This document shows positions 1,288 through 50,069 of a stretch of DNA of 64,000 nt, piece by piece. The position numbers and the translations under genes were made by a program. Each line of letters opens with the position of its first letter. Position 1 is the stretch's first letter. Source of the DNA: an uncultured Alphaproteobacteria bacterium (GTDB taxonomy: Bacteria > Pseudomonadota > Alphaproteobacteria > RF32 > CAG-239); NCBI GenBank assembly GCA_949297145.1, contig CASFQO010000013.1, positions 82,768 to 146,767 on the forward strand. The letters are read 5' to 3'. The notes under the pieces are model-generated. The model saw only the letters and a program-made list of their open reading frames with translations, did no database searches and was not told where the DNA came from.

Positions 1288-3276
1288 ATGAGTGATTTGT
1301 TTGAAAATTCCGCAACGGCTGTTAAGGAAGAATATTCAGCTCGTGATATTGAAGTTCTGGAAGGGCTTGATCCAGTCAGACATCGTCCGGGTATGTATAT
1401 CGGCGGCACCGATGAACAGGCTTTGCACCATTTGGTCGCGGAAATTTTGGACAACTCAATGGATGAAGCTGTCGCTGGTTATGCTTCGAGAATTGACATT
1501 ACACTCAATGCCGATTATTCCGTAACCATTACCGATAACGGACGTGGTATTCCTGTTGATGACCATCCGAAGTTTCCGGGAAAATCTGCTCTTGAAATTA
1601 TTTTGACAACTTTGCACTCCGGTGGTAAATTTGGCGGTAATGCTTATAAAGTTTCCGGTGGTTTACATGGTGTTGGTTCATCTGTGGTCAACGCGCTTTC
1701 TTCTAAACTTGTGGTTGAAGTTGCTCGTGATAAAAAACTTTATCGTCAAGAATATTCTCGCGGCAAACCTCTCACTCCTCTGGTTTTGGTCGGAAATGCC
1801 CCTAATCGCCGCGGTACAAGCATCACCTTTTTACCTGATGAAGAGATTTTTGGTGCTGATAATAAATTTGTACCGGCGAAGGTTTATCGTATGGCTCGCT
1901 CTAAAGCTTTTCTCTTTAAGGGAATTAAAATCTTTTGGAAGTGCGCTCCGGAGCTTTTGACCGAATCTGACGGAATTCCTCAAGAAACGGAATTTAACTT
2001 TCCAAACGGATTACTTGATTTCTTAAATTATCAAATCGGGACAAGACCAACGATAAATCGCGCTCCTTTCTTTGGGGAAGCAGATCTTGCCGGTGATGAA
2101 GGTAAAGTTGAGTGGGCAATTACGTGGCCTGAAGATGAAAAAGGTTTTTGCTCTTCTTATTGTAATACGGTTATTACGCCGCAAGGCGGTACGCACGAAC
2201 AAGGCTTCCGTACAGCCTTACTCAAAGGGCTTAAAGAATATGCCGATATGGCCAATATTAAAAAAGCGGCCGGTATTACGGCTGAAGACTTTTTAAGCGA
2301 CGCGGCGATTATGCTTTCAGTCTTTATTCGTGATCCGCAATTTCAAGGGCAAACGAAAGACAAATTAACCTCCACAAAAGCTGCTTATTTGGTTGAAAAA
2401 GCCGTTAAAGATTCTTTTGACCACTGGCTTTCTTCTGATAAAGAAAATGCCAGCGCGTTGATTGAATATGTTGTGGACAGAGCGGAATTACGCAAAAAAA
2501 GAAAAGAAGAAAAAGTACAAAACCGTAAGTCTCCAACAAAGAAATTGCGTCTTCCGGGGAAACTTGCCGATTGTTCTAAATCTGCGGCTGAAGATACTGA
2601 AATTTTTATCGTTGAGGGAGATTCCGCGGGCGGTTCTGCTAAGCAAGGACGTGACCGTATGACACAGGCCATTCTGCCGCTACGTGGTAAAATTCTTAAT
2701 GTTGCCAGCGCAAGCCTTGATAAAATTACACAAAACCAAGAAATTAAAGATATGATTGAGGCGCTGGGTTGCGGCACGAAGGATAATTATAAAGAGGAAA
2801 ATTTGCGTTATGAAAAAATCATCATCATGACCGATGCTGATGTTGACGGTGCGCATATTACCTCGCTATTGATGACGTTCTTTTATCAATATATGCCGAA
2901 GTTAATTGAAAATGGGCATTTGTTTATTGCAACACCGCCTCTTTATAAAATCGTTTTTGGAGGCAAAAACTACTATGCTCTGGATGATGAGGAAAAAGAT
3001 AAAATCTTAAGCAAAGCCAAAGCTAATCAAAAACCGGATATCAGCCGCTTTAAAGGTTTGGGTGAAATGAGCGCTTTGCAACTTCGCGAGACAACCATGG
3101 ATAAAAATAATCGTGTTTTGTTGCGTGTTGTTGTGCCGACGGCTAATACGGAAGAGGCTCGCGATGAAGCCTTTGAAACCAGACGTCAGGTTGAGCGTTT
3201 GATGGGGAAAGATCCGGAACAACGTTTCAAATTTATTATTGAACGAGCTAAGTTTGCCGAGGATTTGGATATTTAG
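1288..3276 (+). CDS. parE: DNA topoisomerase IV subunit B
   Basis: GHKL ATPase and TOPRIM motifs (LEGLDPVRHRPGMYIGG, EILDNSMDE, IVEGDSAGGSAKQGRDR, IIIMTDADVDGAHI); 662 aa fits ParE rather than ~800-aa GyrB; GAGG RBS before ATG 1288. Confidence 0.9.
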   Translation: MSDLFENSATAVKEEYSARDIEVLEGLDPVRHRPGMYIGGTDEQALHHLVAEILDNSMDEAVAGYASRIDITLNADYSVTITDNGRGIPVDDHPKFPGKSALEIILTTLHSGGKFGGNAYKVSGGLHGVGSSVVNALSSKLVVEVARDKKLYRQEYSRGKPLTPLVLVGNAPNRRGTSITFLPDEEIFGADNKFVPAKVYRMARSKAFLFKGIKIFWKCAPELLTESDGIPQETEFNFPNGLLDFLNYQIGTRPTINRAPFFGEADLAGDEGKVEWAITWPEDEKGFCSSYCNTVITPQGGTHEQGFRTALLKGLKEYADMANIKKAAGITAEDFLSDAAIMLSVFIRDPQFQGQTKDKLTSTKAAYLVEKAVKDSFDHWLSSDKENASALIEYVVDRAELRKKRKEEKVQNRKSPTKKLRLPGKLADCSKSAAEDTEIFIVEGDSAGGSAKQGRDRMTQAILPLRGKILNVASASLDKITQNQEIKDMIEALGCGTKDNYKEENLRYEKIIIMTDADVDGAHITSLLMTFFYQYMPKLIENGHLFIATPPLYKIVFGGKNYYALDDEEKDKILSKAKANQKPDISRFKGLGEMSALQLRETTMDKNNRVLLRVVVPTANTEEARDEAFETRRQVERLMGKDPEQRFKFIIERAKFAEDLDI

Positions 3277-3463
3277 GGGCTACTTCTTGCCTTGAAATAA
3301 TGAAGTCAGTTTGCCGACAGATAAGAAAGCGGTTATCCTCAAAAGCATATGGAGTTTTTACGATAGATAAGAAAGGCTGTTTTTACTGTCTTTCTTATTT
3401 GCGCATAGTCTTTCATCTTTTGAGAAAGAAGTATTTCTATCCGTTCCCTATTCCTTTTGATAT

Positions 3464-4981
3464 TTAGTCATAAGCACGGTAATATCGCTTTTTATAGTCA
3501 AAATCACATTTTAATTGGCTATATTCCGGTTTTAAAATGTATATGACGTTGGAATTATCAAAGGGCTTGTAATATTTATTTATAAAATTCATATCCGGTG
3601 TATGGACATTTTTATCTATGCCGCGTTCGGCAAAATATTTATCTTTATACGGCGCGACATAGATAATTTTTGGCTTATATGTCTTAATGACTGCATTTAT
3701 ATCCATTAGCGGATGTATGCCTACCTTTGCCCCGATAACGTCTAACTGTCCGAGTAAATTCCAATAGTAATGCGGGTCGCGATTATATAAGTTATACAAA
3801 TTACCATCTCCGTTGATGACGTAATCGCATGGCGTTGTGACACGAACGATTTTTTTATTCAACGGGTCATAAAAGCGTCCAACTTTATCTCCCAAATTTC
3901 CATTATATACAGATGGTTTATACATACAAAATGCAAGGGCTGCTATGAGCAGATAAATTAAGGCAAAATGTTTCTTGAACACTTTTTCCTCTAAAAACAT
4001 TGCACTTAGTATCGCCGCTAAATATATCAGCAAATAAAAATAATAGGCAAAAGCAGAAAAATACAGCAAGCGTTGCGCCAGCTCCGTTAGAAATAATATG
4101 GTCAGTATATTAAAATAAATATTTCTTTGACGTATAAAGCAAATTATCGCTAAGAAACTTCCGACCAATAACAATTTCAACTCCGGCCAAATCATCCCTT
4201 GCCTACGCTCTTCGGCAAATAAATCCGGTATGTAGAGATTAAAAATAAAATTTGAACGGAACCAAATTGCCAAAATATCATTGTACCATAAATACAAGGC
4301 ATAACCGAGGCTCAAGCCTACCGGCAAAAGCATGGCGTAGATGACGGCTTTCCACCTGATGACTTTTTTATATAGTAAATAAAAGGTCACCAAAGCTAAC
4401 ACCGCCAGAGCAAAAATGATTTTTTGCAAAAACATAAACGATACCCAAAATAACAACATCGCTATGCTTAACTGACTTATTTTTTGTTCCTTAATATGGC
4501 AAAGATAAAAGTAAAGGCCGGCAAAGAAAGCCGTCATCATAAAATTATCCGGTCGAAAGTTTACAACCGATACGACAACATATGGCGTCAATGCTATAGC
4601 TGCCGCAATTATTCCACCCAATTTATCGGTTAAAAAACGCGAGGCTATCAAATATAAAAAGTAATAATTCAAAAACGAACTTACTATTGCCGCGCTCACA
4701 ACCGTGGCCGTAATGATATTATCATCCAATCCTTGTGCGTGCAACCCGACAAAGGGGGCAAACAAATACCATAACAGAGGGTTATGATGTTGAAAAAAAT
4801 CTTTGTATGGGATAAAATTTGCATACACTAACCACGAGGAGTGAATATGCTCCAGTGTATCTCCGCCTAAGGTGTTTGTTTTCCAGGCAATATACAAACA
4901 AAAAAGTAACCCATAAGCCAGGTGCCCCAGTAAAAAAAATGCCGGAAACTTTTGATATATTTTCTGTAATATTTGCGGCAT
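3464..4981 (-). CDS. Polytopic membrane protein, GT-C (ArnT/PMT-like) glycosyltransferase suspected
   Basis: Over 10 hydrophobic segments plus a C-terminal soluble domain; start at MPQILQ with AAGGAG RBS just after the pit stop. Confidence 0.5.
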   Translation of the reverse strand: MPQILQKIYQKFPAFFLLGHLAYGLLFCLYIAWKTNTLGGDTLEHIHSSWLVYANFIPYKDFFQHHNPLLWYLFAPFVGLHAQGLDDNIITATVVSAAIVSSFLNYYFLYLIASRFLTDKLGGIIAAAIALTPYVVVSVVNFRPDNFMMTAFFAGLYFYLCHIKEQKISQLSIAMLLFWVSFMFLQKIIFALAVLALVTFYLLYKKVIRWKAVIYAMLLPVGLSLGYALYLWYNDILAIWFRSNFIFNLYIPDLFAEERRQGMIWPELKLLLVGSFLAIICFIRQRNIYFNILTILFLTELAQRLLYFSAFAYYFYLLIYLAAILSAMFLEEKVFKKHFALIYLLIAALAFCMYKPSVYNGNLGDKVGRFYDPLNKKIVRVTTPCDYVINGDGNLYNLYNRDPHYYWNLLGQLDVIGAKVGIHPLMDINAVIKTYKPKIIYVAPYKDKYFAERGIDKNVHTPDMNFINKYYKPFDNSNVIYILKPEYSQLKCDFDYKKRYYRAYD

Positions 4982-47022: not shown

Positions 47023-47580
47023 ATGACCATCACCGAACTTCAAATAAATGACGCTGCGGAACGGCAGCTGCATCTGATTGCTACACGGCAAATTCCCTTT
47101 GCCGTGGCGGCTTCTCTGACGGCAGTGGCAAAGATTGCCCAAGCTGAAGTGCGTGATCATATCAACGAAACCTTTACCATTCGCCGTAAAAGCGGTGGTT
47201 TTGCCAGCAGCATTGCCGTTAAATCGGCAACCAAGCAAAGCCAGACAGCAGAAGTTTATACAATGGCCCGATTTGCAGCTTTACAGCAAGTCGGTGGGTT
47301 GCGGCAACCACAGGGAAGCAACTTGGCAATCCCCTCCTATCAGAATCTGAGCGAGGTTAAGTTGCGGCGGTCAGTACGCAGTATTGCCGATGCCTTTGAA
47401 ATAAAACTCCAAGATGGTCAGACAGCTTTGGTTCGGCGCAAGGGAAAAGGCTTGCAATTTCTGTATTTCCTCAGAAAACAGGCTGATGTTCCGAAACGCT
47501 TCAAAATGATTGAAATTGTTACGGAAACAGTCCGGCGGGAATTTGAGAGAAATTTAATACAACAGATAGATAAGTTATGA
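47023..47580 (+). CDS. Phage morphogenesis-like protein, family uncertain
   Basis: 185-aa ORF with phage-like composition; resembles head-tail/neck proteins only loosely. Confidence 0.4.
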   Translation: MTITELQINDAAERQLHLIATRQIPFAVAASLTAVAKIAQAEVRDHINETFTIRRKSGGFASSIAVKSATKQSQTAEVYTMARFAALQQVGGLRQPQGSNLAIPSYQNLSEVKLRRSVRSIADAFEIKLQDGQTALVRRKGKGLQFLYFLRKQADVPKRFKMIEIVTETVRREFERNLIQQIDKL

Positions 47581-48204
47581 ATCATGAAGATATGATTGGA
47601 GATATTGATCAAATAATTCCCCGTAATCTTTATTCTTCCTAATTTTTTCTTGAATTAGTCTTAAATTTCGTTTTCTAACCTTTCGAATCACTCTGCTCCG
47701 GTCATGGCAGATATAAACATTACCGGTGAATGGATCAAGAACTTCACAATGGCAATGTGCATGAATCGGAAATGGCCATATATCATCTGCATCGCTTTTA
47801 TGAATACGCCATTGATGGTTACCGATTGTTGCAGTACCTTCTTGGACACATTCAAGTTCATTAACCTTCTCAACAACAATATCAAAACAGCATTCATAAG
47901 AATGACATAATTTTATAAAAAAATCTTCGACTTTCGGTATATTTTCAAATTCCGCCTCGAAAATAATATGATAGTTAGAGGTTTCGATTTTTATATTTTC
48001 TAAAGGAAGGTTCTGCAATAAAGTATTATGATATTTATCTTCAAGCTCAAAAAAAAGCCGAAATTTAATATGATTATTGAGTGGGTTTTGAAAAATGGAC
48101 CCTGCAAAATAACCATTGACGAATAACGTCTCGTTTACAATTCGAATTAGCGAGTTGTCACCAAAAACTTTATAGTTTTTATCTGAAGAAGAATTATTTG
48201 GCAT
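47575..48204 (-). CDS. Hypothetical protein with His/Cys-rich C-terminal motif
   Basis: GNHQWRIHKSDADDIWPFPIHAHCHCEVLDPFTGNVYICHDRS; low G+C. Confidence 0.5.
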   Translation of the reverse strand: MPNNSSSDKNYKVFGDNSLIRIVNETLFVNGYFAGSIFQNPLNNHIKFRLFFELEDKYHNTLLQNLPLENIKIETSNYHIIFEAEFENIPKVEDFFIKLCHSYECCFDIVVEKVNELECVQEGTATIGNHQWRIHKSDADDIWPFPIHAHCHCEVLDPFTGNVYICHDRSRVIRKVRKRNLRLIQEKIRKNKDYGELFDQYLQSYLHDS

Positions 48205-48659: not shown

Positions 48660-48875
48660 TAACGCGAACCCCGCCGCGTCGCTACCGATAGACTAAAAAA
48701 AGGGTTCGCACCAAGTTCGCACCGAATTTACGTCAAAGCCTTATAATATAAGTCTTCGCGCGAATATTATTATAAAAAAGACAGGTTCGCACCTAATTCC
48801 GCTCAATCCCTTGTCTTGCAAGCAATATAGCGGAATTTAACCTATAACAACACAGGTTCGCAGTTGCGAACCTCT
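48660..48875. repeat. Iterated GTTCGCA motif ending in palindrome AGGTTCGCA-GT-TGCGAACCT
   Basis: Direct copies at 48704, 48715, 48785 and 48856; inverted copies at 48865..48871 and (CGCGAAC) 48663..48669; palindrome 48854..48873. Confidence 0.7.
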
Positions 48876-48897
48876 TTTTTATATAAGGAAGCAAGAA

Positions 48898-50052
48898 TTG
48901 TGGATATACCTACCTGCCGAGTGTTATCACTCTGTTCCGGGGTCGGAGGTCTTGACCTTGGACTTAAACTCGCAATGCCAACTAGCCGAACAGTCGCTTA
49001 TATGGAGATCGAGGCCTATGCGTGCGAAATTCTGGTTAAACGCATACAAGAAAAAGTCTTGGATTCAGCACCTCTTTGGTCAAATGTCAAATCCTTCGAT
49101 GGCAAACCGTGGCGTGGAAAAGTGGATCTTATCACTGGCGGATATCCGTGCCAACCGTTTTCAGTTGCAGGAAAGAAACTCGGAGAAAAAGACCCCAGAC
49201 ATCTCTGGCCCCATGTGCGGAGAATTGTTTCCGAGGTTGAGCCAACGCTCTGTTTCTTTGAAAACGTCGGCGGACATCTACAGTTGGGCTTCGAACAAGT
49301 CCACGATGACCTACAAGGACTGGGTTACAAAGTTAAGGCAGGCTTGTTCACTGCGGAAGAAGTCGGTGCTCCGCATCGCCGTGAACGGCTCTTTATCTTG
49401 GCCTACCGTGATGACAGCAGATGCAACGGTTGCGGAAACAATCACGCCCAACGACAGGTATGTCCAAACCAAGAACGGCACCCTGCGCCGATACATCAAG
49501 AGCGGACACAACTGCAGTCTGGGATTAGCGAGAACAGCACGTCTCTGGCCGACAGTGCTAGTATCGGAAGCCAACGGCGCTTCACTCAAAAAAGTTCAGG
49601 CCGGATATTCGCGAAGCCGTCTGAAAGAGGAAGTTTTGTTGTGGAAACAGCCGAAGAGATGGCCGACACCCAGAGCTCAGGAACCCGGCAGTGTTTCTCC
49701 GAACTATACTCCGGGATTGAAACAAGTAGCAATGAACTGGCGAACACCGAATGCCTCGGATGCCGAGGGCGGTGTTATGGAGATCAGAACGGGAACTTCT
49801 GCCCGGATAAAACTTCGCGATCATTCCGTACATGTTGCCAATTGCCTCTGTGGCCACCCAGACCAAACGACTTTGATGACTGGCGAAATATCCCAGAGAA
49901 CCTTAAACCCGCGGTTTACCGAATGGCTGATGGGCTGGCCGACCGGGTGGACAGAGTTAGAGCCTGCGGCAACGGCGTGGTGCCTCTGGTGGCGGCGTAT
50001 GCGTTTACAGTTCTTACGTCTAACCTTGAATTTACAACAACAGGTATCTTAA
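48898..50052 (+). CDS. Fully overlapping +1-frame ORF (frame B): W(P/R)T(P/V)-repeat / LNPRFTEWLMGWPTGWT protein; true start unknown
   Basis: 384 stop-free codons inside the MTase gene; four spaced WPT motifs; stop TAA abuts the next ATG (TAAATG). Confidence 0.45.
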   Translation: MWIYLPAECYHSVPGSEVLTLDLNSQCQLAEQSLIWRSRPMRAKFWLNAYKKKSWIQHLFGQMSNPSMANRGVEKWILSLADIRANRFQLQERNSEKKTPDISGPMCGELFPRLSQRSVSLKTSADIYSWASNKSTMTYKDWVTKLRQACSLRKKSVLRIAVNGSLSWPTVMTADATVAETITPNDRYVQTKNGTLRRYIKSGHNCSLGLARTARLWPTVLVSEANGASLKKVQAGYSRSRLKEEVLLWKQPKRWPTPRAQEPGSVSPNYTPGLKQVAMNWRTPNASDAEGGVMEIRTGTSARIKLRDHSVHVANCLCGHPDQTTLMTGEISQRTLNPRFTEWLMGWPTGWTELEPAATAWCLWWRRMRLQFLRLTLNLQQQVS

Positions 50053-50069
50053 ATGAACGAGAAAGTTAA
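48900..50069 (+). CDS. DNA (cytosine-5)-methyltransferase (frame A)
   Basis: Motifs I LCSGVGG, IV GGYPCQPFS, VI ENV, VIII HRRERLFI, X GNGVVP; GTG 48900 behind AAGGAAG (frame open from 48864). Confidence 0.8.
   Translation: MDIPTCRVLSLCSGVGGLDLGLKLAMPTSRTVAYMEIEAYACEILVKRIQEKVLDSAPLWSNVKSFDGKPWRGKVDLITGGYPCQPFSVAGKKLGEKDPRHLWPHVRRIVSEVEPTLCFFENVGGHLQLGFEQVHDDLQGLGYKVKAGLFTAEEVGAPHRRERLFILAYRDDSRCNGCGNNHAQRQVCPNQERHPAPIHQERTQLQSGISENSTSLADSASIGSQRRFTQKSSGRIFAKPSERGSFVVETAEEMADTQSSGTRQCFSELYSGIETSSNELANTECLGCRGRCYGDQNGNFCPDKTSRSFRTCCQLPLWPPRPNDFDDWRNIPENLKPAVYRMADGLADRVDRVRACGNGVVPLVAAYAFTVLTSNLEFTTTGILNERES

Follow-up and report, generated by a model that had tools for sequence, protein, structure and literature searches.

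Two co-extensive reading frames of a phage cytosine-5 methyltransferase locus are both kept open by selection and probably encode two subunits of one enzyme

When two frames of the same strand stay open together for more than a kilobase, and both carry recognisable protein motifs, do they encode one protein or two? The question is raised by a phage C5-cytosine methyltransferase locus in the genome of an uncultured Alphaproteobacteria bacterium (GenBank assembly GCA_949297145.1, contig CASFQO010000013.1, positions 82,768 to 146,767 of the forward strand). We refer to this whole stretch of 64,000 nucleotides (nt) as the window and use its own numbering. A first-pass annotation had offered three readings of the locus: (i) a genuine overlapping gene pair, (ii) a single methyltransferase assembled by recoding from frame A to frame B and back, and (iii) a split methyltransferase with its target-recognition domain (TRD) and motif IX in the alternate frame. 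We find that both open reading frames (ORFs) are kept open by selection and that the constraint on them is frame-specific and mosaic. In our judgement they probably form a two-subunit C5-methyltransferase, with A as the catalytic large domain carrying a dispensable tether, and B providing target recognition and motif IX. The two ORFs are:

48900-50069, + strand: ORF A, 389 amino acids (aa), predicted large (catalytic) subunit of a C5-cytosine methyltransferase
48898-50052, + strand: ORF B, 384 aa, +1 frame relative to A, putative small (target-recognition) subunit

Frame A is free of stops from 48864 to 50069 and frame B from 48898 to 50052, so that they overlap over 1.15 kb on the same strand. 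Frame A carries motifs I (LCSGVGG, 48930-48950), IV (PCQ, 49146-49154), VI (ENV, 49260-49268), VIII (HRRERLFI, 49374-49397) and X (GNG, 49968-49976), while frame B has spaced tryptophan codons at 49399, 49546, 49660 and 49738 and ends with a TAA (50050-50052) directly adjoined by the next ATG at 50053. On re-reading the sequence, all coordinates and motifs of the first-pass annotation are correct. B also holds the equivalent of motif IX:

49903-49953, + strand: motif IX equivalent of B, LNPRFTEWLMGWPTGWT; frame A reads LKPAVYRMADGLADRVD from those bases

The double open frame is far beyond chance. The third forward frame meets 27 stops across the same 1209 nt, and the opposite strand of the region has no ORF longer than 94 aa. 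In synonymous shuffles, i.e. with codons swapped among identical amino acids so that protein and codon usage are kept, 8.4 stops are expected in B when protein A is held and 15.2 in A when protein B is held, and neither A nor B is left open in any of 300 shuffles. Specifically, B is expected to meet 3.9 stops across the catalytic part of A (P(open) 0.005), and A 5.6 stops across its middle third, where none is present (P(open) 0/200). The shuffles and the third-frame count bear out the excess of stop-freeness that had been pointed out for both frames.

Of some 160 homologous loci in phages and prophages, about 150 (~94%) likewise have both frames open, down to 26% identity. These loci come from two sets. 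The first (n = 82) consists of 79 IMG/VR loci chosen via B-specific peptides, two GenBank phages, and the window, and has both frames open over at least 850 nt in 75 cases. The second (n = 80) was picked only by the A-specific peptides GYPCQPF and GNGVVPL, as a control for B-based choice; here both frames are open through the gene body at 77 loci, and the B profile matches the +1 frame at all 80 (E 1e-47 to 1e-135). The B frame is A+1 at all co-open loci, and the third frame has a median of 14 stops. The mean P(open) in per-locus shuffles is 0.008 for B and 0.0002 for A.

The nearest relatives of the window lie in metagenome-assembled genomes of gut Alphaproteobacteria. A blastn search of the locus against GenBank phages gives no match, and relatives came from protein-level searches. 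For example, tblastn with B finds Synechococcus phage Yong-M2-251 in one piece at 28.6% identity, where the annotated methyltransferase (2494-3633) is co-extensive with a +1 ORF (2501-3616). The same layout occurs with other A sub-families in Bacteroides phage BS-TP4 (A 735-2057, B 862-1980) and Acinetobacter phage ABMM1 (A 1023-1937, B 1027-1923). More broadly, C5-methyltransferases are accompanied by B-type modules in phages of Actinobacteria, Firmicutes, Bacteroidetes, Proteobacteria, and Cyanobacteria. The two-frame layout is conserved in hundreds of phages and almost never annotated, because gene callers forbid long same-strand overlaps.

One could ask whether a single ordinary ORF has been broken in two by indels that arose in sequencing or assembly. 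Among close relatives, public assemblies do hold chimeric ORFs that pass from A into B, with at least 5 different junctions (P0005-P0008, P0055, P0065), and one of them (P0006) runs A-B-A. Five of these (P0005-P0008, P0065) are what an indel explanation would draw on, and the P0008 contig (L198, Logan ERR8262808) is set apart from the window by the loss of one G from a GG (window 49387-49388). With both frames open, a long chimeric ORF results from any 1-nt indel, and the chimeric ORFs may be either sequencing errors or circulating frameshift variants. Indels would not, however, leave both frames open end to end, and the pair of full-length frames is seen again in about 150 independent loci, which belong to many phage clades and come from many sequencing projects. 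We give this explanation almost no credence.

Which protein does selection see? We back-translated an alignment of 125 complete loci and, in 38 non-overlapping pairs at 75-97% nucleotide identity, classed substitutions by their effect in A and in B (an OLGenie-type count, giving pairwise estimates). Such a test for dual-frame constraint had been suggested for this locus, and it reveals frame-specific purifying selection, given here as ratios of nonsynonymous to synonymous change (dN/dS; intervals in parentheses):

48898-49398: A 0.14; B 0.61 (0.51-0.71)
49399-49842: A 0.945 (0.81-1.12); B 0.19
49843-50052: A 0.33; B 0.43

A sliding window further delimits a doubly constrained core at 49906-49977, where the rate of changes nonsynonymous in both frames (dNN) is 0.004 and dN/dS is 0.06 for A and 0.08 for B; across 49906-50013, A stays at 0.03-0.06. 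Selection is a mosaic, acting on A at motifs I-VIII as well as X, and on B in the middle and at LNPRFTEWLMGWPTGWT.

For the first third of B, we considered dNN/dNS, in which dNS counts changes nonsynonymous in A and synonymous in B. This ratio was set aside as a selection test for the B N-terminus, since empty +1 frames of flanking single-coding genes, used as control, give 0.59-0.79 unaided. As a replacement we measured the p-distance at 4-fold degenerate sites of A (third codon positions, read as second positions in B):

B residues 1-24: 0.22
B residues 25-60: 0.064
B residues 61-84: 0.104
B residues 85-120: 0.29
B residues 121-156: 0.070
B residues 157-170: 0.29
B middle region (171-315): 0.029
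B motif IX: 0.019

Neutral sites have a p-distance of about 0.28, and two parts of the B N-terminus depress the synonymous rate of A ~4-fold. The low values mean that B is constrained in two N-terminal blocks, in the middle, and at motif IX; residues 1-24, 85-120, and 157-170 are kept open and otherwise free. Both frames had been described as protein-like at 49200-49400. Synonymous-site suppression agrees with this for 49258-49365, where B is constrained, but not for 49150-49257, where no such constraint appears.

These data bear on the simplest alternative, in which A alone is translated and the open +1 frame is a by-product of its sequence and codon usage, or the residue of an ancestral frame. 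This would fit the gene callers, which nearly always pick A, and a dNN/dNS for the first third of B that is not under the single-coding control. Yet shuffles that keep the A protein and its codon usage almost never leave B open, the middle third is under purifying selection for B (0.19) and not for A (0.945), and members of the B family are 35-50% identical over their full length. We regard it as very improbable that A is the sole product.

What, then, is A? It carries the C5-methyltransferase motifs I (FxGxG-like), IV (PCQ), VI (ENV), VIII (RxR), and X (GN.V) in one chain. Its match to Pfam PF00145 (1.7e-38) spans positions 2-227 of a profile of 324, and it scores 101.2 bits with TIGR00675, whose cut-off is 100.65. 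It also matches the methyltransferase families 363 and 116 of PHROGs and, by sequence profile, M.HhaI (5e-20). An AlphaFold2 (AF2) model built from an alignment of 116 sequences aligns in Foldseek over about 172 columns to M.HaeIII (5.9e-13) and M.HhaI. Three parts can be told apart, for which we give the predicted local distance difference test (pLDDT) where it applies:

48900-49415, + strand: A residues 1-172, the catalytic domain (motifs I, IV, VI, and VIII); pLDDT about 90, dN/dS 0.14
49416-49844, + strand: A residues 173-315, low-complexity tether; pLDDT 27-36, kept open with its sequence unconstrained
49845-50069, + strand: A C-terminal part WPPRP...W...LKPAVYRMADGLADRVDRVRACGNGVVP, with invariant columns and motif X GNG at 49968-49976

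Between distant loci, residues 1-172 are 52-75% identical and residues 173-315 are 18% identical, while the motif X helix (361-373) has a pLDDT of 93. The middle third had been noted as low-complexity, which is correct; it is also predicted to be disordered and evolves neutrally (dN/dS 0.945). In the AF2 model and by dN/dS, the stretch of A that separates motif VIII from motif X holds neither a structured TRD nor motif IX. From the AF2 and Foldseek pattern, A would thus be a large catalytic domain with a disordered, neutral tether in the place of the small domain. Within this tether, recurring M/L-A/G-N/D motifs (MADTQ and MANAA in relatives) are the frame shadow of the W-P-T-P of B.

B appears to hold what A lacks. 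It matches PHROG 1008 'DNA methyltransferase' over residues 70-354 (7e-21), has no Pfam or NCBIfam match, and its profile gives chance matches only against PDB sequences. We collected 199 homologs. When 1.84 billion representatives from public protein sets are searched with a profile built on 107 B proteins, 35,191 representative clusters match at E<=0.001 and 16,817 at E<=1e-10. PHROGs splits the family into phrog_1008, 26627, 27243, 10223, and 31772, some of them labelled 'unknown function'. The features of B upstream of motif IX are:

48970-49149, + strand: B residues 25-84, first constrained N-terminal segment, with near-invariant W55 L59 G61 P66 G72 W76
49258-49365, + strand: B residues 121-156, second constrained segment, with I127 Y128 T138 W142 R147 C150 R153 K155
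49399-49842, + strand: B residues 168-315, W-x-T-(P/V) repeat modules, putative target-recognition region; B dN/dS 0.19
49660-49737, + strand: 78-nt repeat module (WPTPRAQEPGSVSPNYTPGLKQVAMN in B), an indel in frame for both ORFs

The 78-nt module is present in the window and missing from its closest relatives (L003 and the ERR8262808 contig), and B proteins differ widely in their number of modules (285-544 aa), suggesting gain and loss of repeats in the putative recognition region. In AF2, run on 107 sequences, B has helices at residues 21-60 (pLDDT 71-84), and local confidence is found at residues 21-60, 140-150, 181-200, and 361-384, the first two of which match the blocks of synonymous suppression. 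The motif IX equivalent is 75% identical between distant loci in B and 61% in A, and the B tail that follows it (ELEPAATAWCLWWRRMRLQF...) has no GN.V motif. Over 49903-49947 frames A and B partly echo each other: cTTAAACCCGCGG reads L-K-P-A in A and L-N-P-R in B, and ATGGCTGATGGGCTGGCC reads M-A-D-G-L-A in A and W-L-M-G-W-P in B.

The identity of B is best seen in phages where the same module is arranged differently. By hhalign, B residues 70-355 align to gp57 of Paenibacillus phage Jacopo (99.3%, E 1.5e-20), with B residues 121-156 falling on its N-terminal half, and B residues 254-354 align to gp5 of mycobacteriophage Winget (97.5%, E 9e-12). In Winget, gp6 has motifs I-VIII and then stops, and gp5 lies in the +1 frame with a 209-nt overlap. 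Winget gp5 carries LPTP-type repeats, then RVNPAFAEWMMGWPDGWV, and 21 residues on IIGNGVCP, i.e. motif X in-frame; the LNPRFTEWLMGWPTGWT of B aligns to RVNPAFAEWMMGWPDGWV, upstream of this motif X. Given its homology to both proteins, we take B to be the variable-region and motif IX module of a C5-methyltransferase.

A 725-aa protein (P0358) was examined as a single-chain enzyme with an in-frame B-type TRD and rejected; it is a B-type protein whose N-terminal segment is separated from the remainder by an inserted stretch of about 330 residues. The insertion could be an intein or a mobile element in a methyltransferase gene.

Could B be a real protein with another job, e.g. a regulator, an anti-defence or a DNA-binding factor, that shares its DNA with A? 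B indeed lacks a Pfam or NCBIfam model and a PDB sequence match, and its AF2 model shows no methyltransferase small-domain fold. On the other hand, the B-type module always comes with a C5-methyltransferase catalytic ORF (80 of 80 A-chosen loci), is likewise embedded or overlapping in Jacopo and Winget, and is covalently joined to motif X in Winget gp5, while A is without a structured TRD or motif IX of its own. A separate role for B is, in our view, improbable.

The start sites point in the same direction as the two-subunit reading. The relevant features are:

48898-48902, + strand: overlapping starts TTGTG, with B TTG at 48898 and A GTG at 48900
48885-48891, + strand: Shine-Dalgarno-like AAGGAAG, 6-8 nt upstream of both starts, with a presumed role in initiation

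The GTG at 48900 is the start that gene callers took for close relatives (proteins beginning MDIPTCRVLSL). Other clades start with ATGTGG, GTGTGG, ATGAATGTGG or ATGGATGACCTGG, and in ATGAATGTGG the ATG of A overlaps the TGA that closes B upstream. In every clade examined the two start codons are at most 7 nt apart, an arrangement that would fit two initiation events at one ribosome-binding site.

In the two-subunit reading, two co-extensive frames of one mRNA would give the two subunits of a DNA cytosine-5 methyltransferase, with ribosomes at a single Shine-Dalgarno site starting at either GTG 48900 (A) or TTG 48898 (B). A would give the S-adenosylmethionine-binding and catalytic large domain, i.e. 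motifs I-VIII, a disordered tether of ~143 residues, and motif X. B would give what A lacks, namely a W-x-T-P repeat region of variable length as the TRD, followed by motif IX. The two conserved helical segments at the B N-terminus probably hold B on A, and the A.B heterodimer would methylate phage DNA. From the sequence comparisons we infer that both frames are translated, that A and B associate into an active enzyme, and that the twin starts play a part in stoichiometry. The first-pass reading of an overlapping gene pair is supported by the ~94% of loci with both frames open and by frame-specific purifying selection, and that of a split methyltransferase by the homology of B to Jacopo gp57 and Winget gp5. 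The latter is the functional version of the former, and both describe the same thing.

Several observations weigh against this reading. A single stop interrupts one frame at about 5% of the loci (L024, L034, L074, L094). The dNN/dNS of the N-terminal third of B, 0.61, is no lower than the 0.59-0.79 of the control, so that what speaks for B in this third is stop avoidance and local synonymous suppression, and nothing else. The AF2 model of B has a mean pLDDT of 50 and no confident fold in the W-x-T-P region, whose designation as a putative TRD derives from position and conservation, not from a fold. Against E. coli Dcm, hhalign gives one alignment, of SQRTLNPRFTEWLMGWP to Dcm motif IX RPRRLTPRECARLMGFE, and it is weak (E 0.13). 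Finally, at three loci from two or three lineages (L046 1431-3030, L145 1444-3100, L026 519-2030), the A tether contains from 4 to about 15 stops, while A motifs I-VIII, the A motif X segment (RVDRLRLCGNGVVPL...) and a long B are intact; L046 and L145 also have changes at the A residues D344-G345, which are near-invariant elsewhere. A need not, therefore, be a single chain, its tether may be dispensable, and motif X must be supplied otherwise at these loci. An internal start, a B-to-A shift, and a three-piece enzyme are possibilities.

A B-to-A shift leads to the alternative of one chain made by recoding. Translation would begin in A, pass into B by a +1 shift once motif VIII has been read, and return to A by a -1 shift between motif IX (ending at 49953) and motif X (49968), or a single shift would give an A-B or B-A fusion. 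The mosaic A(I-VIII)-B(TRD, IX)-A(X) follows the canonical motif order, and a B-to-A shift would explain stop-filled tethers with an intact frame-A motif X in L046, L145, and L026. A frameshift or a ribosome hop was also weighed by the Cluster O mycobacteriophage authors for Corndog gp6/gp7 (PMC4351075). Recoding leaves unexplained, however, the avoidance of stops by A in its neutral tether (5.6 expected) and by B over the A catalytic region (3.9 expected), the conserved B start beside the A start, and the synonymous suppression over B residues 25-84. By eye, no classical slippery heptamer (X XXY YYZ) is found at 49936-49967, a region for which no dedicated search for stimulatory RNA structure was made. 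Frameshift genes have a conserved slippery site and a zero frame that is closed beyond it, whereas here both frames are open end to end. The recoded chain would also place motif X ~12 residues after motif IX, compared with 21 in Winget gp5; this spacing is 19 in M.HhaI. We consider recoding as the main route unlikely, and the second of the first-pass readings is disfavoured accordingly by stop avoidance and the B start; a recoded A-B-A chain may be a minor product.

Around the two-subunit locus, the nearest upstream gene (47575-48204) lies on the opposite strand, and the following features flank the dual-frame gene:

48854-48883, + strand: hairpin AGGTTCGCA-GT-TGCGAACCT followed by CTTTTTTATA, 15 nt upstream of the start codons
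50053-51375, + strand: gene fusing ParB_N to an N6/N4 DNA methyltransferase, starting after the B stop and overlapping the end of A by 17 nt

The intergenic stretch 48694-48883 contains five copies of GGTTCGCA(C), all within 48694-48878, two of which form a perfect 9-bp hairpin (48854-48873) directly ahead of the ribosome-binding site. The upstream hairpin looks like a terminator, attenuator or operator. The ParB_N and N6/N4 methyltransferase gene also follows the dual-frame gene in L008, L029, and L198, and this shared neighbour marks the two methyltransferases as a conserved cassette. Translational coupling had been proposed from the TAAATG at the end of B. The TAA of B does abut the ATG at 50053, which makes coupling plausible in the window, but the abutment is not kept in relatives such as L008, and we do not use it as support.

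If the two-subunit reading holds, what would it mean more widely? With ~35,000 B clusters and no Pfam or NCBIfam model, many phage 'DNA methyltransferase' entries are probably half an enzyme. We tentatively propose, as a possibility we rate just short of even, a large and unrecognised class of phage C5-methyltransferases that is obligately two-chain, fully dual-coded from 1.1-1.5 kb with overlapping starts at one ribosome-binding site, and equipped with a modular W-x-T-P subunit B whose repeat number sets or diversifies specificity. Such a class, if true, would be among the longest and most widely conserved same-strand overlaps in bacterial viruses, and would settle whether Corndog gp6/gp7 makes two products or uses a frameshift or hop. 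The Cluster O paper left two products versus one recoded chain open (PMC4351075), and stop avoidance and twin starts argue for two. The clean mosaic of A-only, B-only, both, and neither across phage clades is also a rare natural test bed for frame sharing. Naturally heterodimeric methyltransferases serve as platforms for targeted methylation (PMC2836561), and a modular repeat recognition subunit could be of interest there.

How does this locus compare with known systems? Within the literature searched, we found no paper on a co-extensive dual-frame layout. Long same-strand overlaps with one frame biased or disordered where the other is constrained are a feature shared with viral overprinted pairs (PMC8227390). 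Unlike in those pairs, neither protein of the window is wholly de novo, as each frame combines ancient methyltransferase modules with a 'passenger' stretch, and the pair appears to make up two halves of a single enzyme, not two unrelated proteins. A de novo overprinted pair was considered and rejected; a younger frame restricted to a sub-clade is not what we see, B-type modules spanning the five host phyla listed above and 35,191 clusters.

Among phages, the gp56/gp57 pairs of Paenibacillus larvae phages such as Jacopo (MH454079) resemble the window, with a full-length A-type gp56 that has a low-complexity middle and a B-type gp57 embedded in the +1 frame, both annotated 'DNA cytosine methyltransferase'. 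Jacopo gp57 begins 200 nt downstream of the gp56 start and stops 150 nt short of the gp56 end; by comparison, B of the window has ~70 more N-terminal residues, a C-terminal tail, and a shared start site. The paper on the P. larvae phage genomes lists both cytosine methyltransferase genes but does not discuss their arrangement (PMC6070908).

Complementation between detached fragments of C5-methyltransferases is possible (PMC3404938). Of the known enzymes, M.EcoHK31I comes closest to the window, followed by M.AquI and Corndog gp6/gp7. The first-pass annotation had pointed to M.AquI as encoded by two overlapping ORFs; M.AquI does have two subunits, with motifs I-VIII on alpha and IX-X on beta (PMC3404938), although M.EcoHK31I is nearer (PMC2836561). 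M.AquI, Corndog, and Winget resemble the window in having the catalytic part and the TRD/IX part in different (+1) frames of overlapping ORFs, and the Cluster O paper notes similar arrangements in other phages (PMC4351075). In these systems motif VIII is closely followed by the end of the first ORF, the two ORFs share little sequence (209 nt in Winget), and the second chain has motif X; in the window, A runs via its tether to its own motif X, and the overlap is 1.15 kb.

M.EcoHK31I of E. coli HK31 (Lee, Kam & Shaw 1995, as described in PMC2836561 and PMC3404938) needs both alpha (motifs I-VIII, X, and the TRD) and beta (motif IX), and beta is encoded wholly inside the alpha gene in a different frame (PMC2836561). 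The likeness extends to two polypeptides, to a second ORF on the same strand and in a different frame inside the large-subunit gene, and to motif IX on the small chain, as in B. The N-terminus of the M.EcoHK31I small chain is described as needed for association, and the conserved N-terminal segments of B are a possible analogue.

The beta subunit of M.EcoHK31I has 176 aa. By contrast, the second frame of the window extends over the full gene (384 aa), and its start is 2 nt away from that of the first frame. The putative TRD, on alpha in M.EcoHK31I, lies on the small-subunit frame B in the window (dN/dS 0.19, with A neutral), and the variable region of A has decayed to a neutral, disordered tether. 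What sets the layout of the window apart is a co-extensive overlap with adjacent starts, a TRD-like region on the second frame, and a variable region of A that is a neutral tether.

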